A stretch of 64,000 nucleotides of DNA, taken from sequence record OR352945.1; one strand, 5' to 3'. The stretch comes from Escherichia phage AV115. Made by a program: the position numbers and the translations under genes. Below the pieces are notes generated by a model, which saw only the letters and a list, made by a program, of their open reading frames with translations, made no database searches and had not been told where the DNA came from. This document shows, one piece after another, positions 16,249 to 63,798 of this stretch (position 1 is the first letter of the stretch; the number at the start of each line of letters is the position of its first letter).

Positions 16249-17763
16249 ATGACTGACATTAAAGTACATTTTCATGATTTTAGTCACGTGCGCATTGAAT
16301 GCGACGAAAGTACGTTTTACGAACTTCGTGACTTTTTTAGCTTTGAAGCTGACGGGTATAAATTTAACCCGCGTTACAAATATGGGAACTGGGATGGTAG
16401 AATTCGACTTTTAGATTACAACCGTTTGTTACCATATGGACTTGTAGGACAAATAAAAAAGTTCTGTAGCAATATGAGTTATTCTGTATGGATTGACCCT
16501 AAAATCTTTGAGACCGAAGACCTTACCAGGGAAGATTTTGACGCATGGCTTTCTAAACAAGAAATTTATTCGGGCAACTCCAAAATCGAACCACATTGGT
16601 ATCAAAAAGATGCAGTATATGAAGGACTAGTTAATCGTCGTCGAATTTTAAACCTTCCGACATCAGCAGGTAAATCACTAATCCAAGCACTTTTAGCTCG
16701 GTATTATCTAGAGAACTATGAAGGTAAAATTCTCATTATCGTCCCTACAACAGCATTGACAACCCAGATGGCTAATGATTTTGTTGATTATCGCTTGTTT
16801 AGTCATTCGATGATTAAGAAAATTGGCGGTGGCGCTGATAAAGCAGACAAATCTAAAAACGACGCTCCAATTATTGTTGGCACATGGCAAACGGTAGTTA
16901 AGCAGCCTAAAGAATGGTTCTCTCAGTTCGGTATGATGATGAACGATGAATGCCACTTAGCAACAGGCAAAAGTATTTCTTCAATCATCTCAGGATTAAA
17001 TAATTGCATGTTTAAATTCGGTTTATCTGGCTCATTAAGAGACGGAAAGGCCAATGTAATGCAGTACGTAGGTATGTTCGGCGAAATCTTCCGTCCTGTT
17101 AGCACGTCTAAATTAATGGAAGATGGACAGGTAACTGAGCTTAAGATTAATAGTATTTTCCTTCGTTATCCAGACGAATTCACTGTTAAATTAAAAGGTA
17201 AAACATACCAAGAAGAAGTTAAAATTATTACCGGACTAAAACGTCGTACAAAGTGGATTGCTCAACTTTCAGTCAAATTGGCTAAGAAAGACGAGAACGC
17301 CTTTGTAATGTTTAAACACGTTACACACGGTAAAGAAATATTTGAAGCTATTAAAGAGCTTGGATACGAAAAAGTTTATTACGTATCAGGTGAAGTTGAT
17401 ACCGAAACACGTAACGCGCTTAAAGTCATGGCAGAAAATGGTAAAGGCATTATTATTGTCGCATCATATGGAGTATTCTCTACCGGTATTTCAGTCAAGA
17501 ATCTTCATCATGTTATTTTTGCCCATGGTGTTAAATCAAAAATTATTGTACTTCAAACCGTAGGTCGTGTGCTTCGTAAGCATGGTTCTAAAGCTGTTGC
17601 TACAGTTTGGGATCTCATCGACGATGCAGGTGTAAAACCTAAATCATTAAATACTAAAAAGAAGTATACTCATCTTAATTACTTGTTAAAACACGGTATT
17701 GATCGTATCCAACGTTACGCTGATGAGAAATTTAACTATGTAATGAAAACAATTAATTTATAA
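16249..17763 (+). CDS. uvsW: UvsW DNA/RNA helicase
   Basis: 504 aa; SF2 helicase motifs (DECH, TSAGKS); late promoter at 16212. Confidence 0.95.
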   Translation: MTDIKVHFHDFSHVRIECDESTFYELRDFFSFEADGYKFNPRYKYGNWDGRIRLLDYNRLLPYGLVGQIKKFCSNMSYSVWIDPKIFETEDLTREDFDAWLSKQEIYSGNSKIEPHWYQKDAVYEGLVNRRRILNLPTSAGKSLIQALLARYYLENYEGKILIIVPTTALTTQMANDFVDYRLFSHSMIKKIGGGADKADKSKNDAPIIVGTWQTVVKQPKEWFSQFGMMMNDECHLATGKSISSIISGLNNCMFKFGLSGSLRDGKANVMQYVGMFGEIFRPVSTSKLMEDGQVTELKINSIFLRYPDEFTVKLKGKTYQEEVKIITGLKRRTKWIAQLSVKLAKKDENAFVMFKHVTHGKEIFEAIKELGYEKVYYVSGEVDTETRNALKVMAENGKGIIIVASYGVFSTGISVKNLHHVIFAHGVKSKIIVLQTVGRVLRKHGSKAVATVWDLIDDAGVKPKSLNTKKKYTHLNYLLKHGIDRIQRYADEKFNYVMKTINL

Positions 17764-17777
17764 GGGCTTCGGCCCTT
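17762..17777 (+). terminator. stem-loop after uvsW (UUCG loop)
   Basis: AAGGGC-ttcg-GCCCTT; no strong T-run, may be stability/processing element. Confidence 0.4.
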
Positions 17778-17788
17778 AGGAGATAAAA

Positions 17789-24250: not shown

Positions 24251-25360
24251 ATGATTAGTGTAAAAGAAATAGTAGTAGATGCAAAGGATTTAAATAAAGC
24301 AATCCCAGTCTCAGAAAGTGCTGGGCAAAGCACTAAAACCGAAACAACTACTAAAACTTATGTTGCTCAATTTCCTACAGGAAGAGCAGCCGGAAATGAC
24401 TCCACAGGAGACTTCCAGGTAACAGACCTTTATAAGAATGGATTATTATTTACCGCGTACAATATGTCTGCACGCGATTCAGGATCCCTCAGGAATTTAC
24501 GTCCGGCATATGCCGGGACTTCATCTAATGGTATCATATCAGATTTAACTGATAATGTGAAAGATGCAGTGACTAAATTCTCTAATGGGTTGCTTCCTGC
24601 CGGAGCTAATAAATCTACTATAAATAAAACTCCTGTTGCTAATATCCTTTTGCCGCGTTCCAAATCTGACGTTGATACAACTTCACATCGTTTTAATGAT
24701 ATTGGTGATAGCCTTATTACTAAAGGTGGAGGTACTGCTACGGGCGTTTTAAGTAACATTGCTTCTACTGCAGTTTTTGGTGCATTAGATTCTATTACTC
24801 AAGGGCTTATGGCTGATAATAACGAACAGATTTATACGACTTCTCGTAGTATGTACGGCGGTGCTGAGAACCGTACTAAAGTCTTTACATGGGATTTAAC
24901 TCCACGTTCAACTGAAGACCTTATGGCTATTATAAACATTTACCAGTATTTTAACTATTTCTCATATGGTGAGACCGGTAAATCACAGTACGCCCAAGAG
25001 ATTAAAAGTTATTTAGACGAATGGTACCGTTCAACGTTTATTGAGCCTATGACACCAGACGATGCTGTAAAAAATAAGACATTGTTTGAAAAGATTACTG
25101 CGTCATTAACAAACGTATTAGTTGTAAGCAACCCTACGATTTGGATGGTTAAAAACTTTGGACACACATCTAAATTTGACGGGTTAACTGATGTATTTGG
25201 CCCATGTCAAATTCAAAGCGTACGTTTTGATAAAACTCCAAATGGACAATTTAATGGTCTCGCTGTTGCTCCTAACTTACCGTCAACATTTACGTTAGAG
25301 ATAACAATGCGAGAAATTATTACATTAAACCGTTCTTCACTTTATGCGGGGACTTTCTAA
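24251..25360 (+). CDS. 48: baseplate tail tube junction protein
   Basis: 369 aa; synteny 29-48-54. Confidence 0.9.
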   Translation: MISVKEIVVDAKDLNKAIPVSESAGQSTKTETTTKTYVAQFPTGRAAGNDSTGDFQVTDLYKNGLLFTAYNMSARDSGSLRNLRPAYAGTSSNGIISDLTDNVKDAVTKFSNGLLPAGANKSTINKTPVANILLPRSKSDVDTTSHRFNDIGDSLITKGGGTATGVLSNIASTAVFGALDSITQGLMADNNEQIYTTSRSMYGGAENRTKVFTWDLTPRSTEDLMAIINIYQYFNYFSYGETGKSQYAQEIKSYLDEWYRSTFIEPMTPDDAVKNKTLFEKITASLTNVLVVSNPTIWMVKNFGHTSKFDGLTDVFGPCQIQSVRFDKTPNGQFNGLAVAPNLPSTFTLEITMREIITLNRSSLYAGTF

Positions 25361-26322
25361 TGTACTCTTTAGAAGAATTTAATAACCAAGCTATAAATGC
25401 AGATTTCCAACGAAACAATATGTTTAGTTGTGTATTTGCTACTACGCCATCGACCAAATCGTCTTCACTAATTTCGTCAATTGGTAGTTTTGCTTATAAT
25501 AACTTAGGGTTGGATTCAGATTGGCTAGGATTGACTCAAGGTGATATCAATCAGGGCGTAACAACCCTGATTACAGCAGGAACACAGAAATTAATTCGAA
25601 AATCAGGTGTAAGTAAATATCTGATTGGAGCAATGAGTCAACGTACGGTACAAAGCTTGTTAGGTGAGTTCACAGTAGGAGCTTATCTGATAGACTTCTT
25701 CAATATGGCATATAATAATACAGGTTTAATGATTTATTCTGTAAAAATGCCTGAGAACAGATTATCCTATGAAACGGATTTCAACTATAACTCCCCGAAC
25801 ATCCGAATTACCGGTCGAGAAATGGATCCGTTAGTAATAAGCTTTAGAATGGATTCTGAAGCATCTAACTTTAGAGCAATGCAGGACTGGGTAAACTCAG
25901 TCCAAGACCCTGTAACAGGTCTTCGCGCTTTACCACAAGACGTCGAAGCAGATATTCAGGTTAATTTACATGCACGAAATGGTTTACCACATACCGCTGT
26001 CATGTTCACCGGATGTATTCCTGTTAGTGTCTCTTCTCCTGAGTTAACGTATGATGGTGATAATCAGATAACAGTTTTTGATGTAACATTTGCTTATCGC
26101 GTTATGCAATCAGGTGCTGTAAATAGACAGGCTGCTTTAGAATGGCTGGAATCAGGACTTATTAGTAGTGTTTCAGGAATGTTTGGAAATAATCAGAATG
26201 ATTCTGGACTAGGAAGTGCAGTATCAAGACTTTCTAGATTAGGTGGGACTGCTGGTGGTGTGTCTAATATAAACACATTGACAGGCGTGGTGAATTCTGC
26301 ATCAAGAGTTTTAGGACTATAA
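25360..26322 (+). CDS. 54: baseplate tail tube initiator
   Basis: 320 aa; synteny. Confidence 0.9.
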   Translation: MYSLEEFNNQAINADFQRNNMFSCVFATTPSTKSSSLISSIGSFAYNNLGLDSDWLGLTQGDINQGVTTLITAGTQKLIRKSGVSKYLIGAMSQRTVQSLLGEFTVGAYLIDFFNMAYNNTGLMIYSVKMPENRLSYETDFNYNSPNIRITGREMDPLVISFRMDSEASNFRAMQDWVNSVQDPVTGLRALPQDVEADIQVNLHARNGLPHTAVMFTGCIPVSVSSPELTYDGDNQITVFDVTFAYRVMQSGAVNRQAALEWLESGLISSVSGMFGNNQNDSGLGSAVSRLSRLGGTAGGVSNINTLTGVVNSASRVLGL

Positions 26323-26329
26323 GAAAAAA

Positions 26330-26346
26330 GGGAGACGTTGTCTCCC
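26330..26346. terminator. bidirectional terminator between gene 54 and alt-side operon
   Basis: A-run GGGAGAC-gtt-GTCTCCC T-run between convergent genes. Confidence 0.6.
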
Positions 26347-26355
26347 TTTAGGGGT

Positions 26356-26649
26356 TTATTTACGGAATGAAAGGAATGCTGGTGCTCGGAATGGAGTATC
26401 ATCTTTAGAGTATTTAACTAATACGACCATTGGTACCTCTGTTTCTAAATGACCTGTCACTACACCTATAAAAATTTGGTCGGTGTGCTCAGGGTCACGA
26501 AAGTTTTTAAGAGGTTCCATAGCAATATGGAATGCACCTGGGAATACTCGATTCAATTCGTCAATCACAGCTTCATTAAAAACATCATCTGCCGGAATAA
26601 CATTTTCAACTACTAGTTCTTGACCATTAAAGCGAAGCATAGATTTCAT
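26356..26649 (-). CDS. hypothetical early protein (downstream of alt)
   Basis: Track ORF starts 26721, but early promoter lies inside that extension; SD AGGAAA precedes ATG at 26649 (MKSMLRF...). Confidence 0.45.
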   Translation of the reverse strand: MKSMLRFNGQELVVENVIPADDVFNEAVIDELNRVFPGAFHIAMEPLKNFRDPEHTDQIFIGVVTGHLETEVPMVVLVKYSKDDTPFRAPAFLSFRK

Positions 26650-29039: not shown

Positions 29040-30532
29040 TATAAACCTGTCTGGGACCACGGTCCAAATACGTCTTCAAACGAATCCGCTTCTGTTTTAT
29101 CAAAACGGAACCCTTTAATAATTGGAAGGAAAATACCTACAGTACCTTCACGGCCTTTGGAATGAACCCAACCATTACATTCACAATCAGCGATACGTCC
29201 AATTAATTTACCTTCACGAGCTTCGGTCATTAATCGTTCACGGTCTAAATCATGACGCTCGTCTAAAGGAATAAGAACCTTTACACCGTCAACTGTTTTA
29301 TGAGTTGTATCTTTAAAACCTGAACCACAATCGGTTGTAATACGACGACAACGTGATACGAGTTCGACACCACCTAATTTGTTAGGGTCTTTAGAGTGTT
29401 CATAGTATCCTACAACTTCTAAAGCGATATCAATAACTTCTTTAAATTTAATTAGGTTCTTAGAGCGTTTGTTTTCCCAATATGAATCACGGTTTTTAAG
29501 GATAATACCTTCAAGACCTTGGTCAACATATTTTTTATAAACCACTTTAGCTTCATCAAGATTACGAACTAACTGATTTTCAATTGGTTCAATTCGCTTA
29601 AAGCCTTCAGCCATATTTTCAAGAGCAGCAAAACGAACATCGTATTTCTGACCTTTAATTTTGCCATCAGAATAGACTTCATCTAAAGGAACATAGTCCC
29701 AGGCTTGAAGAACCATACCTTCAGCTTCTTTAGGAGAAATAGTCCCTTGAAGAGATTTATTTGCTAAACCATTTGAAGTGCTACGGTCTGCAACTTGTAC
29801 TTCTTCGGATTCTTCATTATCACCAAATAAGAACGACAGGTCATTTCCTGAGCTCACAGCCTTTTTAATATAAAATGAATGATAAACTAATTCACCGTCG
29901 ATTAAAACCCCATTAGGGTGTCTTTCACGAGCTTCTTTAGTCATTTCCATTAGTTCATCCGCTAATAGAGTAAGACCATGATATTCGTTACCAGCACGAG
30001 AAAAGAATTGAACACCATCATCGCGAACTTCAGCGAAACAACGAGCACCATCTGCCTTTAATTGAGCAAATGCAGGCCATTTAATATTTTTAGTAATCAA
30101 TTTCTCGTCATATGCAGATGCTAACATCTGTGGTTGCAATTGAATAAGTCCAGGCCATACCTTATTCGCGATAGACACTGAAGCACCTACTTCAAGGTCG
30201 CGCATCATTACACGACGAAGGACTTCTACATCATCAGGTTTACCGTCAGCGATATAACCCATGAGCTCTTTAATTGCAGCATTACCAGTGAGTTTACGAG
30301 TGGCTAATGTGAACTCAATAAAATCCAACATGTCATCTAATTCAAGAAGACCATATGCTTGGGACCTTTCACCTGGTCCTGGCCATTTCTTAATATAATA
30401 CTGAATGCCACGTGCATACGTTAAACGATATACACGTTCAAGTAATTTGTTGTCCTTATTTTTCTTAAGGATTTCTTGTTTTGTTTTAGTAGAACCGATC
30501 GCAGCTATTTGGTTTAAAATATCTAAAATCAT
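29039..30532 (-). CDS. 30: ATP-dependent DNA ligase
   Basis: 497 aa; close match to T4 DNA ligase incl. KADGAR adenylation motif. Confidence 0.97.
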   Translation of the reverse strand: MILDILNQIAAIGSTKTKQEILKKNKDNKLLERVYRLTYARGIQYYIKKWPGPGERSQAYGLLELDDMLDFIEFTLATRKLTGNAAIKELMGYIADGKPDDVEVLRRVMMRDLEVGASVSIANKVWPGLIQLQPQMLASAYDEKLITKNIKWPAFAQLKADGARCFAEVRDDGVQFFSRAGNEYHGLTLLADELMEMTKEARERHPNGVLIDGELVYHSFYIKKAVSSGNDLSFLFGDNEESEEVQVADRSTSNGLANKSLQGTISPKEAEGMVLQAWDYVPLDEVYSDGKIKGQKYDVRFAALENMAEGFKRIEPIENQLVRNLDEAKVVYKKYVDQGLEGIILKNRDSYWENKRSKNLIKFKEVIDIALEVVGYYEHSKDPNKLGGVELVSRCRRITTDCGSGFKDTTHKTVDGVKVLIPLDERHDLDRERLMTEAREGKLIGRIADCECNGWVHSKGREGTVGIFLPIIKGFRFDKTEADSFEDVFGPWSQTGL

Positions 30533-30798
30533 TTGATGTCCTCGATTTTGGTTACGGTTCTATTATAAGCAACTTCATCTAGAAGCGATTTCAGCGTTTT
30601 CTGATAAGTGGTAATCCATTTACCGAGCCCTTCAACATAGTATTCTGAAATGTAGATGAACCCTTGTTCAACACACTCTTTAAATATTTCTGCGTCTTTT
30701 ACTGAACGAAACAATGGCCAGTCTCGAAAGAACATGTTAACGTGACCGTAGTCACGCGTTGTGTTTTTGCCATCTGTAATATCATGAACTACAAACAT
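30529..30798 (-). CDS. hypothetical protein (30.x cluster)
   Basis: 89 aa, start overlaps gene 30 upstream region. Confidence 0.5.
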   Translation of the reverse strand: MFVVHDITDGKNTTRDYGHVNMFFRDWPLFRSVKDAEIFKECVEQGFIYISEYYVEGLGKWITTYQKTLKSLLDEVAYNRTVTKIEDIK

Positions 30799-30807
30799 AA
30801 TTATCCC

Positions 30808-31623
30808 TTAACAATTTATAGACCAAGTCCATTTAGACGAATCTAAAGGAAAGTTTTGAATCGTCCACCATGGCTGCATATTGGTTGGTCCTGGGGTTCG
30901 CCAGGTATACGGATTCGACGGACCGCCAATTTGATTAGGCCATGCACCTGGACTTGTTGCACCAGATTCTTTAAGCAAATCCGCCAATCGTTTTAAAAGG
31001 TCTTCACGATCTGAATCTGAATTATGCTCGGGTGGAACCAAACGAGATTCAATATCATCCCACGTGTGTACACGTTGTGCAGTGCGAGGAATATCATCAC
31101 GTTCACCACGAGCCAACCAATAAATCGGTACATTAAGAATTTCTGCCGCATGGTCACAATGATGAGCTAAATCGTCAACGTAACAAATCACGTTATATTT
31201 TGTTTTAGCTAGTTCAAATAATTGTTCCTTTGACGAATCATGACCACACATCATTACTTCAGAAAAAGCGCCTGGGAACAAAGCATTCAAATTAAATTGT
31301 CTATTCAATCGAGCATCAATTGAATCACCTAGCGCCGTCACGGCTACAAAATTATAGTCTTCTTTTAGTTTATTGATAACTCGAAGAGCATCCGAATAAG
31401 GCGCTAAGTAACGAATAAAATCAGAGCGATTATATTTTTCTATTAATTGTTTACCAAGGTTATCGTCGGTATTGAATAGTTTACCAGGAGAAATAAATTT
31501 TTCGTCCTGGATCATTTTTAAAATATGTTCTAATGGAAGATTATATTTTTGGGCAAAATAAGGAAGTCCAGATTGCCAGCTTAAACATACACCATCAATA
31601 TCAGTCAAAATAGTAGGCTTCAT
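30808..31623 (-). CDS. hypothetical protein with N-terminal DxDGV motif (HAD-like?)
   Basis: 271 aa; TDIDGV near N-terminus resembles HAD motif I; 30.2 position. Confidence 0.5.
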   Translation of the reverse strand: MKPTILTDIDGVCLSWQSGLPYFAQKYNLPLEHILKMIQDEKFISPGKLFNTDDNLGKQLIEKYNRSDFIRYLAPYSDALRVINKLKEDYNFVAVTALGDSIDARLNRQFNLNALFPGAFSEVMMCGHDSSKEQLFELAKTKYNVICYVDDLAHHCDHAAEILNVPIYWLARGERDDIPRTAQRVHTWDDIESRLVPPEHNSDSDREDLLKRLADLLKESGATSPGAWPNQIGGPSNPYTWRTPGPTNMQPWWTIQNFPLDSSKWTWSINC

Positions 31624-32087
31624 AAAGAGTCTCTTAATAGGTTTAACACATCAATAAATTCAGCTTCGGTTAGTATTGTATCATCTTTTGTTAGACCACT
31701 AGCCATGCTGTGCTTCAAAATTTTTCCTTTAGAGGCTTGTAAGGCATCACGAAACCCCTTGTTTTGGATCGCTGCTTCAAAATATGCATTTGTATATAAT
31801 TCTTTCCACGCTTCAGAGTATCTTGAAAATGGAACTCCTAACCAGAAGAGAGTCCCATGGTCCTGAGCTCTTGCATAAGACCTTCCAGCTTGCTGTGCAG
31901 CCAGTCCTGACAGCCCAAATATACGTTTTTGTTGTTCAACATTTCTCACCTTACATCCTTGGAGAAATCCTTCAAGACCTCCGAATTGAATATCGTCCAT
32001 AACGAAAGGCCACCGGGCAAAATTACTTAATGCACATGACGGCCACTTAAAATTGCTTCTTATTTCTAATTCAGACATCTTTAACAC
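31620..32087 (-). CDS. YbiA/NADAR (DUF1768)-like protein
   Basis: 155 aa; LSNFARWPF resembles YbiA FSNFAAWPI signature. Confidence 0.55.
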   Translation of the reverse strand: MLKMSELEIRSNFKWPSCALSNFARWPFVMDDIQFGGLEGFLQGCKVRNVEQQKRIFGLSGLAAQQAGRSYARAQDHGTLFWLGVPFSRYSEAWKELYTNAYFEAAIQNKGFRDALQASKGKILKHSMASGLTKDDTILTEAEFIDVLNLLRDSL

Positions 32088-32289
32088 TTATAATTTCAAT
32101 ATCAGCCCAATGACCGTATCCAGGTATACGGTCTTCGATAGATAAATTTCCGTCATTTTTAGGCATTTTAATTGACGTAACGTATGGTTCTAGACGGTTT
32201 TCTGCATAATACGGAAAAACGTCTGTTACACGATAAGTAACTTCGATCATTTCTGTACCCAACAATTTCTGAATTAATTTCTTTAACAT
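32071..32289 (-). CDS. hypothetical protein
   Basis: 72 aa ORF, co-oriented in 30.x cluster. Confidence 0.4.
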   Translation of the reverse strand: MLKKLIQKLLGTEMIEVTYRVTDVFPYYAENRLEPYVTSIKMPKNDGNLSIEDRIPGYGHWADIEIISVKDV

Positions 32290-32290
32290 A

Positions 32291-32485
32291 TTATCCTCGC
32301 TTTAAACATTTGATTACAGACAGTTCACCACCCATGCGAACGTCTTCAGTTCCATCGACCCATAGGACGGTGTAGGCTTCTTTAATAGTAGCATTACCTA
32401 ATTTAAAAGCAGGTAAAACCTTTGAAATCATACCAGGAATACCTATACCTTTTAACTGGACAGTTTGTGATAAGAATAGTTGCAT
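32291..32485 (-). CDS. hypothetical protein
   Basis: 64 aa ORF, tightly packed. Confidence 0.4.
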   Translation of the reverse strand: MQLFLSQTVQLKGIGIPGMISKVLPAFKLGNATIKEAYTVLWVDGTEDVRMGGELSVIKCLKRG

Positions 32486-32772
32486 TAGAACCTCATCTGA
32501 AATCCGTGTGATTTAACATTACCGCCATAAATGTCAGAGGTATTGACTTCACGTGCGGCGCTAGGGTCGATGTTAATATCATGGTTGAGCTTAGTGATTG
32601 CTAAGGTGTCACGACCGTTAACAGTACGGAATTCTACCGGGCACACATCATCAGCATAAGCCTTAATGGATTCATGAGTAGGTTGTTTGTCGACAGGAAC
32701 GTCTTTACCTGCTTTAGAGAAAACAACTTCACAGAAATTTTTACGGGTATCAAAATAAGTGGTCATAAACAT
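32485..32772 (-). CDS. hypothetical protein
   Basis: 95 aa ORF with SD GAGGAA upstream. Confidence 0.45.
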   Translation of the reverse strand: MFMTTYFDTRKNFCEVVFSKAGKDVPVDKQPTHESIKAYADDVCPVEFRTVNGRDTLAITKLNHDINIDPSAAREVNTSDIYGGNVKSHGFQMRF

Positions 32773-32787
32773 AATATTTTCCTCAAA

Positions 32788-32809
32788 GGAGGCCGAAGCC
32801 TCCTTTTTT
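32788..32809 (+). terminator. plus-strand-oriented intrinsic terminator inside minus-strand gene cluster
   Basis: GGAGGC-cgaa-GCCTCC followed by T6 on plus strand. Confidence 0.5.
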
Positions 32810-32813
32810 AAGA

Positions 32814-33179
32814 TTAGATATCGAATTCGTTAAGAACTACATCAAAGATTGCTTCGAGATGTTCAGGTTTAGCTCGGTTACTCAGGATATGACGAATCCA
32901 AGTTTTAACCAGAAGTTTACGATTAACACCGTTCCAGCAAGGATGAGTACCTAAATCACGTTGACGGAAATCATCATCTAATGCAATTTTGAAGTTGGAA
33001 CCTTCCATCATGATTGAAACAGTAATGCCATTTTCAAATCGCATATAAACGTAATTAGGAGTCATATACTGCTCAATTTCACATACTGAACCATTTTTAT
33101 GCTTCCACAAGCAAACCATGTCGATAGAACCAGCGATACCGTTAGAAACATATTTACGTTCGAAGTTGATGTAGTTCAT
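32814..33179 (-). CDS. hypothetical early protein
   Basis: 121 aa; early promoter and hairpin directly upstream. Confidence 0.5.
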   Translation of the reverse strand: MNYINFERKYVSNGIAGSIDMVCLWKHKNGSVCEIEQYMTPNYVYMRFENGITVSIMMEGSNFKIALDDDFRQRDLGTHPCWNGVNRKLLVKTWIRHILSNRAKPEHLEAIFDVVLNEFDI

Positions 33180-33220
33180 TTTATTCTCCGGTTGTTTTAT
33201 TGATTAGGTGGTACAAGTCT

Positions 33221-33249
33221 ATAGTAACACATCCTACAGGAGAGTAAAC
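33221..33249 (-). promoter_or_regulatory. early sigma70-type promoter
   Basis: GTTTAC-N17-TACTATAGAC on minus strand, preceded by hairpin 33286-33303. Confidence 0.6.
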
Positions 33250-33285
33250 ATCTTTTTAAACTTTTTCTGCCCTAAACGCACAAAA

Positions 33286-33303
33286 GGGAGACCGAAGTCT
33301 CCC
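33286..33303 (-). terminator. stem-loop GGGAGACCGAAGTCTCCC (copy 1)
   Basis: Perfect 7-bp stem, CGAA loop, T-run on minus strand; precedes early promoter. Confidence 0.55.
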
Positions 33304-33308
33304 TAAAA

Positions 33309-33488
33309 TTATGCAACAACCTTTCCAAAACGAGAAGCATCATCTCGAAGAACTGCACGTGCTCTGCGCATGATCTTCTCAACGGTTTGATTAATACGAG
33401 AGTTCGACCCACGCTTGTATCCAGCGCGTTTAGAGGTACCATCAACTTTCTTTTCAACTGCTTTCTTTGCTTTAGCTTGTTTTGCCAT
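33309..33488 (-). CDS. small basic protein (59 aa)
   Basis: ORF not in track (59 aa): MAKQAKAKKAVEKK...; followed by hairpin terminator at 33286-33303. Confidence 0.4.
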   Translation of the reverse strand: MAKQAKAKKAVEKKVDGTSKRAGYKRGSNSRINQTVEKIMRRARAVLRDDASRFGKVVA

Positions 33489-33651
33489 TATAAATTCTCT
33501 TTAAATGAAAATGCAGGACTTATTGACATTGCCTGCTCAAGCCCTCAATGGGAACATAGGTTTTGGATATTTAACGACAGGATAACCATAAACCCGTCAT
33601 CATACCTACCATGACTTACACAGCTAACCTTTTGCTGACGCATGATAGCAA

Positions 33652-33900
33652 TTATTTCAAAGTAATAACAAAATGACGTACTGCTTTACGAGCTGCAGAA
33701 GCCAAAGGCTTAGCATATTTCAGTTCATCTTTTGCTTCCAGTTCAGAAGCCAAAGCTGCCTGGACCGGGTTCAGATGTTTGAAATAACGAAGGATTTCAA
33801 GAGCTTCGGCTTCAACATCAATAGATGCGCCATAGTTTTCATGACCATTATTCCATGCGTTTCGTTGCAGTTCAAGAGCGTGTTGTAATTGTTTAATCAT
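33652..33900 (-). CDS. rIII: rIII lysis-inhibition accessory protein
   Basis: 82 aa, T4 rIII length, position between 30.x cluster and gene 31. Confidence 0.7.
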   Translation of the reverse strand: MIKQLQHALELQRNAWNNGHENYGASIDVEAEALEILRYFKHLNPVQAALASELEAKDELKYAKPLASAARKAVRHFVITLK

Positions 33901-34024
33901 TTTAAATTCTCAATTCGAGATAATATTTAGTAGCCACGTTCGTCTGAATTTCACCTTCTTTCGACAAGTCTCTCAGTTGTAGGCTACCGCTTAGAAGAGT
34001 GTTCTCTTCATATAGTTATTTATA

Positions 34025-34357
34025 TCACTTATAAAGACACGGAATAGCTTTATAGTGGCATGTTACGAATTTCTGTTTAATTTCTTTAGGTTGTTTAAGT
34101 CCCAAAGCCACAAATGGATGTGGAACATTTCGAATTTGTCCAACTGGTAGTGGAGTCAAATCACCGACTTCAACAAAACCTTCAGGAACATCAGGACCTA
34201 CAGAATGAACTACACATAGTTCAGGAACTTCACCTTGAACACGTTTACCAATCACAAGTCCTGATTCGGTAACTTCTTCATCACCTGCTTGAGCGGGTTC
34301 AGAAACCAGAATGACATATTCACCAACAGCACGAATTGGGAGTTGTACTTCAGACAT
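34025..34357 (-). CDS. 31: co-chaperonin (GroES analogue)
   Basis: 110 aa; near-identical to T4 gp31. Confidence 0.92.
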
Positions 34358-34414
34358 CTTATTTCCTTGTTGTTTGACGATAGATTAATAATACCATACT
34401 ATTCGTAAAGCATA

Positions 34415-34723
34415 TTACATAAGAAGCAAACGTTCTACCGGAGTACCATCAACCGAAATTACTTTATCAAGGCGGAAAGAACGCCACTGACCTAACTCGG
34501 TATCGAATGCTCGAACTGATTCACGAGGTTCAGAACGAACTTCTGTTGATGGGTTACTATTTTCATATTTGACTTCAAGTTCGTCGCGGGAAGCAAACAT
34601 CGTACGAACATCACCGTTAGCCTTTTCAAATACAACACAATGAACGCCTACAGACAGAATAGTTTTAATACGTTCACGAAGAACCATAGTTTCTTGTTCA
34701 GTTAAAATCATATTATTCACCAC
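34415..34723 (-). CDS. hypothetical protein
   Basis: 102 aa ORF between cd and gene 31. Confidence 0.45.
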   Translation of the reverse strand: MVNNMILTEQETMVLRERIKTILSVGVHCVVFEKANGDVRTMFASRDELEVKYENSNPSTEVRSEPRESVRAFDTELGQWRSFRLDKVISVDGTPVERLLLM

Positions 34724-35294
34724 AAAAGTTTCGAATTTGTTCCCAATTCAGAGAACGAAGATTATTACGAGAGTACTGAATTACTTCAATACCGGCTTTT
34801 TTTAGAATGTCTGCCCAATTTTCAGGAGATCGGTCATATAATTCTGCATATACAACCTTTTTAATACCTGACTGTGTAATAGCTTTAGTGCAATCAGGAC
34901 ATGGAGAAAGCGTCGTATACAACGTAGCACCTTCAATAGAATTACCTTTACGAGCTGCAAACAAAATTGCATTCAATTCCGCATGGATTTCGTTATTAGC
35001 AGACCATGCACTATGAGCGGCCCGATGTTCTTTAGCCAAAACAAAATTATCCACCCGTCCAAATGCTGTAGTGCCTTCTTTATGCCCAGCAACGATGACC
35101 GGGCTTGGTTTATTCTTCAACCAACCATTTTCGGATGCATGTTCGCAACAGTTTGTACCACCTGAAGGAGAGCCATTATAACCTGTAGAAATAATGCGTC
35201 CATCTTTTTCAATGACGGCGCCAACTTTCCATGAACAACATTTTGATTCTTGAGAAATCAGATAAGCAATCTGAAGATATGTGCTAGCTTTCAT
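34713..35294 (-). CDS. cd: dCMP deaminase
   Basis: 193 aa; HAELNAI and PCPDC zinc-binding motifs. Confidence 0.95.
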   Translation of the reverse strand: MKASTYLQIAYLISQESKCCSWKVGAVIEKDGRIISTGYNGSPSGGTNCCEHASENGWLKNKPSPVIVAGHKEGTTAFGRVDNFVLAKEHRAAHSAWSANNEIHAELNAILFAARKGNSIEGATLYTTLSPCPDCTKAITQSGIKKVVYAELYDRSPENWADILKKAGIEVIQYSRNNLRSLNWEQIRNFCGE

Positions 35295-36286
35295 TATTGA
35301 ACCTTATTAATATAAGTTAACAGCTCTTTAGTTTGTTCCCAACTGATGCACGCATCGGTAATGGAAACGCCATAGGACATATTATCAGAAATTTTTTGAT
35401 TTCCTTCATGTAGGAATGATTCTATCATAATTCCTTTGACCAAATCATTAGCTGCTAAATTTTTACCAATACCAATTTGATTGCTATAATGCCCATCAGC
35501 GTTTGCATGGCTACAGTCAACCATTACATAATGATTCAGACCTACTGCCCTTGCTTTGTTAGAAGCTTCTTGAATATCAGAAGAATGATAGTTCGGGCCG
35601 TTGGTCCCGCCACGCAATACGATATGCGTATTCTGATTACCTTCAGCTTCAACAATGCCTACAGTACCATCGACGTCCATACCCATATACCGATGAGGCC
35701 AGGCGGCACTATACATCGCGTCTGTAGCTACTTTAATAGAACCATTGGTTGCGTTCTTGAAGCCTACGCACATCGGTAGACCTGAAGCAATTTCACGATG
35801 TGTCTGACTTTCAGTCGTACGGGCGCCAATAGCAACCCATGAGAAAATACCAGAAAGATACTTAATCGTGAATGGGTCTAATACTTCAGTTGCTAATGGA
35901 AGTCCCATACGTAGAAGTTTACGACACAATGTTCGTGCAACTATAAGACCGTGGTTCATATCAAAACTTCCGTCAAGATATGGATCATTTACAAGACCTT
36001 TCCAACCTACGGTAGTTCGAGGCTTTTCAAAATAAACGCGCATCACTAACAGAACATTAGGAAGACGAGTTTGAAGTTCAGCCAGACGTTTGCCGTATTC
36101 AACAGCAGCAATAGGGTCATGAATTGAACAAGGACCTACAACAATAAGTTTGCGTGGGTCTTCACCGTTCATAATCGAATTAACTTGTTCGCGATGAGAA
36201 GCCACTTGTGATGCGTAAGCTTCCGACAAAGGAATAATCTCAGCCAGTTCTTTTGGAGAAATAAGTTTTCCGACGACAGGTAACAT
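35294..36286 (-). CDS. 3-deoxy-D-arabino-heptulosonate 7-phosphate (DAHP) synthase, class I
   Basis: 330 aa; full-length similarity to AroG/AroF (GPCSIHD, VYFEKPRTTVGWKGL, IGARTTESQ, KPGxxD motifs); stop overlaps cd start. Confidence 0.88.
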   Translation of the reverse strand: MLPVVGKLISPKELAEIIPLSEAYASQVASHREQVNSIMNGEDPRKLIVVGPCSIHDPIAAVEYGKRLAELQTRLPNVLLVMRVYFEKPRTTVGWKGLVNDPYLDGSFDMNHGLIVARTLCRKLLRMGLPLATEVLDPFTIKYLSGIFSWVAIGARTTESQTHREIASGLPMCVGFKNATNGSIKVATDAMYSAAWPHRYMGMDVDGTVGIVEAEGNQNTHIVLRGGTNGPNYHSSDIQEASNKARAVGLNHYVMVDCSHANADGHYSNQIGIGKNLAANDLVKGIMIESFLHEGNQKISDNMSYGVSITDACISWEQTKELLTYINKVQ

Positions 36287-50159: not shown

Positions 50160-50177
50160 GGGAGACCGAAGTCTCCC
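50160..50177 (-). terminator. stem-loop GGGAGACCGAAGTCTCCC (copy 2), after gene 32
   Basis: Identical 18-nt hairpin, T-run on minus strand, followed by early promoter. Confidence 0.6.
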
Positions 50178-58024: not shown

Positions 58025-59152
58025 ATGGAAAAATTTATGGCTAAGTTTGGACAAGGATACGTCCAAACGCCATTTTTATCGGAAAGCAATTCAGTACGAT
58101 TTAAATTAAGCATAGCGGGCTCTTGCCCGCTATCAACATCTCCTGCTTATATTAAGTTCCAGGATAATCCACTTGGTTCCCAGGTTTTTTCCGTTGGATT
58201 AAACGTTCGTGTAATAAATCCTACAACAGGTGCAGTAGTTGAATCTAAGTCATATAATTTCTCTACTGAAAACGACGCCACGTCAAGTGCATTTGTTACT
58301 TACATGGATACATATGCTTCAAATTTTATATTTGCTCTTGTTACTAACGCTAAAACAAACTTTCCTCCTGAAGTTCTCGCATGGTTTACCAAAGCTGGGA
58401 GTTCTGCTATTCCATTAGCTCAACAAGTTTTAAATATAGTGGACATTTCTTATTCTGCATTTTATATTTCTGGTAAGAACGCTATAGCACTAGAACATAT
58501 TAAGTATAGTAATAAGAAAACTTCAACCGACTATAGTACACCACTTGATGTTGTGTACGACACTATCGATGATATTGGTGCTACCGGCTTCCCTAGTCGT
58601 ACGTACGAATCGACAGACACATTTTTATCTGCTGTTGGAGGTACTAATAACGAAATTAAAAGGATGCCTACAACATCCCTTATTACACCTCTCGCTGGGT
58701 ATAAATTGAAGCCTGGAGATTTCCTTTATATGAAATTCCAACTAATGGCCGATGCTGATTTGTTAGCACAAGGGACGACACGACTCTCTATTCGTTTCTT
58801 TAAATCTCCTTCTACTTCACCTATTTCATTTAAGGATATAAACTTTGATGGGGCTGCAGGTGAATGGAAGATATATGAAGACTACATAGAAATTCCTGCT
58901 GGTGCTGACGGGTTCACGATTTATTGTTATCGTACAGCTCCAGTCGGGCAAGGTGGATTAAGAAACGTTATATTCACTGAAGTATCATGTAATGGAAGCG
59001 TTTCAAAACCTGCTGAGTTTGGTATAAATGGTATTCGTGTAAATTATGTTTCAGAATCTTTAAGTGCCCCAGACATAATGACATTACCTACTCAATCTTC
59101 AACTGATACCGGTAAGGTATTTGGACAAGAATTTAAAGAAGCATCAGAATAA
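58025..59152 (+). CDS. 35: long tail fibre hinge protein
   Basis: 375 aa; synteny 34-35-36-37. Confidence 0.9.
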   Translation: MEKFMAKFGQGYVQTPFLSESNSVRFKLSIAGSCPLSTSPAYIKFQDNPLGSQVFSVGLNVRVINPTTGAVVESKSYNFSTENDATSSAFVTYMDTYASNFIFALVTNAKTNFPPEVLAWFTKAGSSAIPLAQQVLNIVDISYSAFYISGKNAIALEHIKYSNKKTSTDYSTPLDVVYDTIDDIGATGFPSRTYESTDTFLSAVGGTNNEIKRMPTTSLITPLAGYKLKPGDFLYMKFQLMADADLLAQGTTRLSIRFFKSPSTSPISFKDINFDGAAGEWKIYEDYIEIPAGADGFTIYCYRTAPVGQGGLRNVIFTEVSCNGSVSKPAEFGINGIRVNYVSESLSAPDIMTLPTQSSTDTGKVFGQEFKEASE

Positions 59153-59157
59153 ATTTA

Positions 59158-59175
59158 GGGAGACCGAAGTCTCCC
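59158..59175 (+). terminator. stem-loop GGGAGACCGAAGTCTCCC (copy 3), after gene 35
   Basis: Identical 18-nt hairpin followed by ATTTTTG, then late promoter. Confidence 0.6.
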
Positions 59176-59182
59176 ATTTTTG

Positions 59183-59190
59183 TATAAATA
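59183..59190 (+). promoter_or_regulatory. late promoter TATAAATA (gene 36)
   Basis: Exact TATAAATA ~25 nt before gene 36 ATG, after gene 35 terminator. Confidence 0.7.
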
Positions 59191-59214: not shown

Positions 59215-59877
59215 ATGGCCGATTTAAAAGCTGGTAGTACAACTGGCGGTGCCGTTATATGGCATCAAGGTAATTTCCCTTTAATGCCAGCAGGTGATGA
59301 CGTCCTGTATAAAACGTTTAAACTCTATTCAGAATATAATAAACCACAAGCTGCTGATAATGATTTCGTTTCTAAAGCTAATGGTGGTACTTACGCTGCA
59401 ACTGTTCGATTTAACGGAGGCGTACATGTTCCTACTGTAGGTAGTAGTCAACAGTGTGGTGTTTATCCAGGTAACGGTGATGCAGCTACTTTTGATATGG
59501 CAAATATTGACATCGTTTCGTGGAATGGTATTGGTTTTAAGTCATCACAAGGTTCAGCAGACCGAACTGTTGTTATTAACGCTCGTAATGGTGATATTAG
59601 TACAAAAGGCGTTGTGACAGCAGTAGGTCAAGTAAGAAGCGATGCGACTTCTCCTATAGCAGCGAATGATCTCACAAGAAAAGATTATGTTGATGGACGA
59701 ATAAATATTGTTACGGATAACGCAAATTCCCGTGTATTGCGTAAAGGCGATACCATGATTGGTACTTTAACAGCACCAAACTTTTTCTCACAGAATCCGG
59801 CGTCTGAGGCTAATCATGTTCCTCGTTTCGACCAGATTGTAATTAAAGATTCTGTTCAAGATTTCGGCTATTATTAA
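59215..59877 (+). CDS. 36: long tail fibre proximal-distal connector
   Basis: 220 aa; late promoter at 59183. Confidence 0.9.
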   Translation: MADLKAGSTTGGAVIWHQGNFPLMPAGDDVLYKTFKLYSEYNKPQAADNDFVSKANGGTYAATVRFNGGVHVPTVGSSQQCGVYPGNGDAATFDMANIDIVSWNGIGFKSSQGSADRTVVINARNGDISTKGVVTAVGQVRSDATSPIAANDLTRKDYVDGRINIVTDNANSRVLRKGDTMIGTLTAPNFFSQNPASEANHVPRFDQIVIKDSVQDFGYY

Positions 59878-63780: not shown

Positions 63781-63798
63781 AGAGGGCTTCGGCCCTCT
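63781..63798 (+). terminator. stem-loop between genes 37 and 38
   Basis: AGAGGGC-ttcg-GCCCTCT immediately after gene 37 stop, before gene 38 SD. Confidence 0.45.

Follow-up and report, generated by a model that had tools for sequence, protein, structure and literature searches.

A UUCG hairpin between the 30.7 and 30.6 homologues of Escherichia phage AV115: a probable structure of the early message with a terminator-like complement

Between two early genes of Escherichia phage AV115 which are both read from the minus strand, the plus strand carries what looks like an intrinsic terminator: a short GC-rich hairpin immediately followed by six T's. Does this element stop transcripts running against the genes, does it act on the translation of the gene downstream, or is it a structure of the early message itself? 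An earlier note, made from the nucleotide sequence, had proposed the first two possibilities. We examined the question computationally in a stretch of 64,000 nucleotides of this phage (sequence record OR352945.1), the whole of which is called the window below, and in the homologous loci of related phages.

The hairpin and its surroundings

A 2-kb query taken round the site matches Escherichia phage AV118, classified as a Mosigvirus, at 99.7% identity, and by this similarity AV115 can be regarded as a Mosigvirus-type T-even phage. The minus-strand genes of the region are homologues of T4 genes 30 (ligase), 30.1 to 30.7, 30.9, rIII, 31 and cd. The sequence GGAGGC-cgaa-GCCTCC followed by T6, as the earlier note had described it on the plus strand, is present at exactly 32788-32809, and the flanking genes, homologues of 30.7 and 30.6, both lie on the minus strand as the note had said. 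The hairpin sits in the 41-nt spacer which leads from the stop codon of 30.7 to the ATG of 30.6. The features to which we refer are the following.

32788-32793 and 32798-32803, plus strand: arms GGAGGC and GCCTCC of the core stem, read from the sequence
32794-32797, plus strand: loop CGAA (UUCG on the minus strand)
32804-32809, plus strand: T6 directly past the stem, equal to A6 on the mRNA strand
32785-32806, minus strand: intercistronic RNA hairpin AAAGGAGGC-UUCG-GCCUCCUUU, with C:G as the loop-closing pair
32814-33179, minus strand: gene 30.7 homologue, 121 aa, 95% identical to T4 gp30.7, first cistron of the early transcription unit
32485-32772, minus strand: gene 30.6 homologue of 95 aa, which follows the hairpin in the message
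32780-32784, minus strand: Shine-Dalgarno (SD) sequence GAGGA of the 30.6 homologue, adjoining the hairpin on its 3' side, with the ATG (32772) 7 nt further on
33180-33304, minus strand: upstream control region of 30.7, with terminator, early-type promoter and leader

The stem lengthens to 9 bp (AAAGGAGGC/GCCTCCTTT, 32785-32806), three bases of the T6 run being also those which lengthen the sense-strand stem through A:U pairs, and the whole element reads AAAGGAGGC-CGAA-GCCTCCTTT-TTT on the plus strand. Read on the minus strand, which is that of the genes, its centre is GGC-UUCG-GCC, a UUCG loop closed by C:G. The predicted folding energy is -13.4 kcal/mol on the plus strand and -14.2 kcal/mol on the minus strand (z about -3.4 against shuffles), and the minimum free energy fold of the 71-nt context retains the hairpin on both strands. 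A generic terminator scan missed the site because the extension of the stem uses up three of the T's; we therefore derived its chance level from a custom motif count with shuffles, which replaced that scan. With both strands included, the window holds 10 hairpins that have a tetraloop and a 6-bp stem of at least five G:C pairs, against 0.23 +/- 0.64 in 200 dinucleotide shuffles. A hairpin of this kind followed by T6 is seen only once in the window, at 32788-32809, and in none of the 200 dinucleotide shuffles. The hairpin motif is far beyond chance. No family match was obtained at the site when positions 30000-36000 were scanned with Rfam at E<=1.

Upstream, gene 30.7 follows a compact control region on the minus strand. 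After 30.9, a CUUCGG hairpin with a U-tract forms a terminator (33285-33304), the homologue of which is annotated as 'early terminator TE' in phage GiZh; next come an early-type promoter, GTTTAC-N17-TACTAT, and the leader of 30.7, where the SD before the ATG contains GGAG, the type of site cut by RegB. The 30.7 transcript of T4 is one of the early ones, and RegB cleaves it within the SD (PMC9409239, citing Truncaite 2006). The T4 counterpart of the region 33180-33308 holds the 333-bp gene 30.8 with its own early promoter; in AV115 the 30.8 homologue is absent between 30.9 (33309-33488) and 30.7, and a single block of terminator, promoter and leader is left.

The window has more copies of the hexanucleotide CTTCGG than expected, 29 as against 16.1 +/- 3.7, and 20 of these lie on the minus strand. 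Hairpins having a UUCG loop, a C:G closing pair and at least 4 bp number 10, nine of which are intergenic with stems of at least 5 bp, and in eight of these nine the UUCG stands on the strand of the flanking genes. Two other modules on the plus strand, at 17761-17778 and 63781-63798, likewise consist of a stop codon, a CUUCGG hairpin, then GGAG or AAGGA, then an ATG, with no U-tract; taken with the site studied here, they suggest that hairpins adjacent to a TIR form a class of their own, which recurs and is separate from that of the terminators. UUCG tetraloops, which are very stable, were first found in T4 mRNA (PMC4371310).

The one exception to the orientation rule is the hairpin GGGAGAC-CGAA-GTCTCCC at 59158-59175, where UUCG is on the strand opposite the flanking genes. 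Its neighbours are plus-strand ORFs (58025-59152 and 59215-59877) which resemble the tail-fibre genes 35 and 36 in size and order, and on the plus strand it is followed by ATTTTT and then by a late-promoter box, TATAAATA, at 59183-59190. This hairpin of the late region mirrors the idea of an antisense terminator which the earlier note had put forward for our site. The same 18-nt hairpin, GGGAGAC-TTCG-GTCTCCC, stands at three intergenic sites (33286-33303, 50160-50177 and 59158-59175), and once more with the loop AAC at 26330-26346; such dispersed identical terminator hairpins could be short recombination substrates.

Terminator strength and transcription of the plus strand

Using a terminator index which combines hairpin energy and T-tract (d'Aubenton-Carafa 1990 as in Lesnik 2001), calibrated in the window and meant for relative use only, we obtained 26.2 for the site on the plus strand and 6.2 on the minus (gene) strand, against 10.5-24.9 for five minus-strand operon-end hairpins of the window which served as reference, including the one after 30.9 (21.3). 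In this phage, a good terminator is thus suggested by the plus-strand reading but not by the sense reading. An RNA polymerase arriving on the plus strand would very probably be terminated by the hairpin and T6. On the sense strand, the stem is followed by UUUGAGGAAAAUAUU, which does not make a U-tract, and every homologue has only 2-3 U's between the stem and the purine-rich SD. Public annotations of the site conflict: it is a rho-independent terminator on the antisense strand in phage GiZh and a terminator on the gene strand, based on ARNold, in phage OE5505.

The T-run is labile. The 57-nt junction of AV115 is found in identical form in just 3 of 51 matching records, and the T6 of the plus strand is replaced by A-T5, A-T6, A-T3 or nothing in relatives. 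The mRNA strand reads as follows before the stem in four of them (for the first three, the identity over the 2-kb query is given in brackets).

AV109 (97%): AAAT
ChristianSchoenbein (95.6%): AAAAAT
SF (94.2%): AAAAAT
NC-G: AAAAAAT

In AV115, A6 is completed by a single base, which also gives the sense hairpin its three A:U pairs. Across 21 distinct homologous variants, the antisense index exceeds 0 in three and 10 in two, and the sense index reaches its maximum, 6.2, in the lineage of AV115 and is at or below about 0 in most variants. The homologues from Klebsiella and Serratia phages keep the hairpin and show no T-run on the plus strand. About half of the distinct variants have a T-rich antisense tail, defined by at least 5 T in 8, as compared to roughly 10% expected from intergenic composition. 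In this count two of the T's come from the TAA stop codon, and the variants lack independence; the excess may reflect some selection on the plus strand. The plus strand has the hairpin and the U-tract of an intrinsic terminator, with a U-tract that is not conserved among homologues, and the comparison indicates that the site is not a conserved terminator on either strand.

Which transcripts could reach the site on the plus strand? The nearest perfect late-promoter box on this strand is at 24619, in the block of late genes which ends with gene 54, and no perfect TATAAATA was found on the plus strand from there to the site, over about 8 kb. Boxes with one mismatch (153 against 158.5 expected) are at chance level and hence carry no information. 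The hairpin after the late gene 54 homologue (26320-26360) has an index of 24.9 on the minus strand, where its T7 tail serves the convergent minus-strand operon; for the late transcript of the plus strand, the tail is UUUAGGGG and the index 1.7. As this plus-strand terminator is weak, late read-through into the antisense of alt-30-30.x is conceivable. Neither the terminator scan nor the tetraloop survey lists a comparably strong plus-strand terminator between gene 54 and the site. The site is about 6.4 kb beyond gene 54, and a read-through RNA would be untranslated that far; long untranslated RNA is normally curtailed by Rho. None of the six other hairpins listed between minus-strand genes has a comparable T-run on the plus strand, which argues against a general design of antisense stops. 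Our search of the literature on T4 Term-seq, maps of transcription starts and ends (TSS/TTS) and antisense RNA-seq found no strand-specific data for this region.

A weak sigma70-like promoter match, TTCACA-N17-CAAAAT (9/12), is seen on the plus strand at 32728-32756, about 35 nt upstream of the hairpin. Together with T6, it would bound an RNA of about 45 nt antisense to the SD and start codon of 30.6. Matches of such quality number 52 against 54 expected in 17 kb, and this one lies in conserved coding sequence.

Conservation of pairing and loop in T4-like phages

We gathered homologous loci through gp30.6, through an alignment of gp30.7, and from GenBank phages of other genera. Between its genes 30.7 and 30.6, T4 has a hairpin at the same place but with another sequence, GGGGC-UUCA-GCCCC. 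In T4 and most of the 31 IMG/VR loci, the stop codon of 30.7 is directly followed by a hairpin, and the same holds for Serratia phage CHI14 (Winklervirus), Klebsiella phage pzk-kv19 (Jiaodavirus) and Enterobacter phage UFV01 (Karamvirus). It is lost in locus L038, has a stem mismatch in L037, and the arrangement is different in L044, L045 and L049; given its loss in a relative (L038), the hairpin is dispensable. Among the homologues, it begins 2-15 nt after the upstream stop codon and leaves a gap of 0-8 nt between stem and SD, and in nearly all of them GAGGAAA is found 2-7 nt past the hairpin. The arms are GGAGG/CCUCC in one lineage only and GGGGC/GCCCC in most other homologues. The hairpin is kept although several unrelated genes succeed 30.7 and the hairpin in different genera. 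In one locus, L005 (IMGVR_UViG_2974742932_000001, 1380-1510), 30.8 and 30.7 are deleted up to the 5' edge of the hairpin. The hairpin, its stem shorter by one G, now lies in the 5' leader between the sole early promoter and 30.6. At such a position an efficient sense-strand terminator would not be tolerated.

When 19 distinct variants are aligned on the loop, 92% of the cells are paired, and in four of the six stem pairs both partners have changed in a compensatory way (G:C to A:U and G:C to C:G). The covariation score was reached by none of 500 shuffles, and controls slid along the alignment are 29-68% paired. These figures point to purifying selection for pairing. Compensatory changes alone cannot tell on which strand the pairing is selected; the strand was assigned from the identity of the loop together with the orientation bias seen throughout the window. 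On the sense strand, the 19 loops are UUCG (14), UUUG (2), UACG, GAAA and UUCA (1 each), so that 16 of the 19 variants have a loop of the UNCG or GNRA class when read along the genes. The antisense readings of the same loops (CGAA, CGUA, UUUC etc.) belong to these classes in none of the 19. One lineage (L028, L029, L031) has fully swapped UUCG for GAAA, and this interchange implies that what selection sees is the stability of the hairpin in the sense RNA. By this comparison, an exceptionally stable tetraloop is kept in the sense orientation only.

A proposed place in the early message, and other explanations

The earlier note had also suggested that, on the minus strand, the hairpin overlaps the ribosome binding region of the next gene and could modulate its translation. 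The overlap concerns only an SD-like GGAGG in the 5' arm, 26 nt from the ATG, as the SD GAGGA itself is outside the extended stem. In 13 homologues, the predicted accessibility of SD and AUG did not change consistently when the hairpin was deleted or either arm was mutated; in these predictions the hairpin abuts the SD of 30.6 without sequestering it, and the suggested modulation of translation found no backing. The idea that the hairpin keeps the SD open was dropped as a supported mechanism, the comparison of wild type with deletion and arm mutants having no consistent direction in the 13 homologues. The GGAG of the 5' arm was considered as a RegB target and seems a doubtful one, for this motif is base-paired in the predicted fold and is missing from most homologues, which have GGGGC. 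That GGAG motifs within intergenic UUCG stem-loops are resistant to RegB in vitro (PMC1702504) fits the paired GGAG of the 5' arm.

The explanation that we prefer, with moderate confidence, is that the site belongs to the classical T4-type intercistronic C(UUCG)G hairpins and is their representative at this locus, acting as gene-strand (minus-strand) RNA in the early polycistronic message, where it forms a barrier to decay or processing. Hairpins of this class date back to 1988, when Tuerk et al. reportedly described those of the form C(UUCG)G in bacteriophage T4 mRNA; T4 has the orthologous hairpin, and at least two GenBank records already annotate the site as a terminator. Stable hairpins can obstruct exonucleases and RNase E. 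By analogy, the sense-strand intercistronic structure is most probably a decay or processing barrier. The early message would start at the promoter upstream of 30.7 and run through 30.6 towards the ligase gene 30, and the hairpin would be a fast-folding and very stable punctuation mark in it. It would halt the 3'->5' exonucleases which enter after endonucleolytic cuts downstream, and would slow down the 5'->3' spread of an RNase E/G attack begun by the RegB cut at the GGAG of the 30.7 SD, and the lifetime of the 30.7 segment would be uncoupled from that of 30.6 and of later cistrons. The A6 run adds three A:U pairs to the sense hairpin, the complementary strand gaining a hairpin with T6 as a side effect. 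We read the termination capacity of the plus strand as a lineage-specific by-product and not as a conserved function.

The site resembles the T4 hairpins in its short GC-rich stem, in its UUCG loop closed by C:G on the gene strand, in its place within an intercistronic spacer of a T-even early message, and in the conservation of structure over sequence; by position it is the orthologue of the T4 30.7/30.6 hairpin. It differs from them in that its stem, GGAGGC/GCCUCC, is extended by AAA/UUU, whereas T4 itself has the weaker UUCA loop, and in that the A6 run of this lineage creates the look of a terminator on the complementary strand. With intrinsic and bidirectional terminators it shares a GC-rich hairpin followed by T6 on the plus strand, and a partly symmetrical, bidirectional-looking arrangement of an upstream A-tract and a short downstream T-tract. 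Unlike them, it lies between co-directional genes and not within a convergent pair, its U-tract is unconserved and on a strand without known genes or promoters nearby, and its sense tail has 3 U's and runs into the SD. REP elements and 5' stem-loops such as that of ompA are mRNA-stabilising or decay-barrier hairpins; the hairpin of AV115, for which a barrier role is proposed, is like them a stable intercistronic structure without a U-tract in a polycistronic message, but its length is far below that of REP, and it does not stand at the very 5' end of a primary transcript. The promoter-early stem-loop (PeSL) cassettes (PMC2839356, PMC4122927) are also comparable, with an intergenic stem-loop followed by SD and start codon, set among small early genes in a variable region and at a synteny breakpoint. 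A PeSL is defined as a stem-loop followed by an early promoter and then by the SD (PMC4122927); here only 0-8 nt separate stem and SD, and the early promoter is upstream of 30.7 instead.

Several other explanations have to be weighed, some of which are compatible with the main reading, so that they are not all mutually exclusive. The hairpin could be an attenuator or partial intrinsic terminator of the sense strand, lowering transcription of 30.6 and downstream genes relative to 30.7. The gene-strand annotation in OE5505 and the slightly positive sense index of this lineage agree with this, as does the strong reduction of reporter expression by the stem-loops of PeSL cassettes in RB49 (PMC2839356); we nevertheless hold it to be unlikely, in view of the two or three U's which precede the SD in all homologues, of an index which is about 0 or less in most variants and always under that of the genuine terminators of the window, and of the L005 locus, which tolerates the hairpin right after its sole promoter. 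As to a plus-strand terminator selected to keep antisense (late, read-through) transcription out of the early genes which lie further along that strand, which was the suggestion of the earlier note, its strength in AV115 stands: the index is level with those of the best terminators in the window, the annotators of GiZh made the same call, T-rich antisense tails are present in T4-type and JS98-type relatives, and past the weak hairpin of gene 54 nothing comparably strong is listed before the site. The selected function did not stand so well, and appears decidedly unlikely. The U-tract is unconserved, differing even between phages 95-97% identical over the 2-kb query and missing where Klebsiella- and Serratia-phage homologues keep the hairpin, and the identity of the loop is optimised for the opposite strand. 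The plus strand offers no perfect late box between 24619 and the site, with one-mismatch matches at chance, and Rho would normally have stopped an untranslated RNA 6.4 kb past gene 54; the other six hairpins listed between minus-strand genes, moreover, have no comparable antisense T-run. We consider it improbable that the element is bifunctional in this Mosigvirus sub-lineage, that is, a stability hairpin on the mRNA strand whose plus-strand T6 also sets the 3' end of an antisense RNA, be it late read-through past gene 54 or the cis-antisense RNA of about 45 nt from 32728-32756, which would cover the SD and start of 30.6 and help to shut off the early operon.

A tuner of translation of the downstream cistron might free the SD from long-range pairing, mask the decoy GGAGG, or link initiation at 30.6 with the ribosomes which terminate at 30.7. 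The hairpin is indeed close both to the conserved GAGGAAA and to the stop codon, a terminating ribosome would need to melt it, and in this lineage its 5' arm reads as a perfect SD-like sequence, which the anti-SD-like 3' arm sequesters. However, the predicted unpaired probability from SD to AUG does not change consistently in the 13 homologues, the GGAGG/CCUCC arms belong to one lineage while most others have GGGGC/GCCCC, and a compact phage genome gives close spacing anyway, which leaves this explanation very doubtful. Finally, the hairpin could act at the level of DNA, as a recombination linker, a promoter-less relative of the PeSL cassettes involved in gene shuffling among T4-type phages. 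The break of synteny falls exactly at this junction, several unrelated genes following 30.7 and the hairpin in different genera; the deletion of 30.8-30.7 in L005 ends at its 5' edge; identical 18-nt GGGAGAC-TTCG-GTCTCCC hairpins are dispersed in the window; and crossover points of PeSLs are in or beside the stem-loops (PMC2839356). A hairpin of 14-22 nt nevertheless provides little homology, and the UNCG or GNRA loops specific to the sense strand would be left unexplained, so that we regard a linker role as hardly probable.

For annotation, the locus calls for caution: short GC-rich hairpins of the T4 type resemble terminators on either strand, and here two public records oppose each other. 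The class of the loop, UNCG or GNRA on one strand only, can show together with comparative data which strand is under selection. Neither the decay barrier nor the plus-strand termination would much alter current understanding. Termination on the plus strand, if true, would document containment of antisense transcription within the early region; the decay barrier, if true, would provide a simple mutable handle on the differing lifetimes of early cistrons after RegB cleavage in T-even phages.
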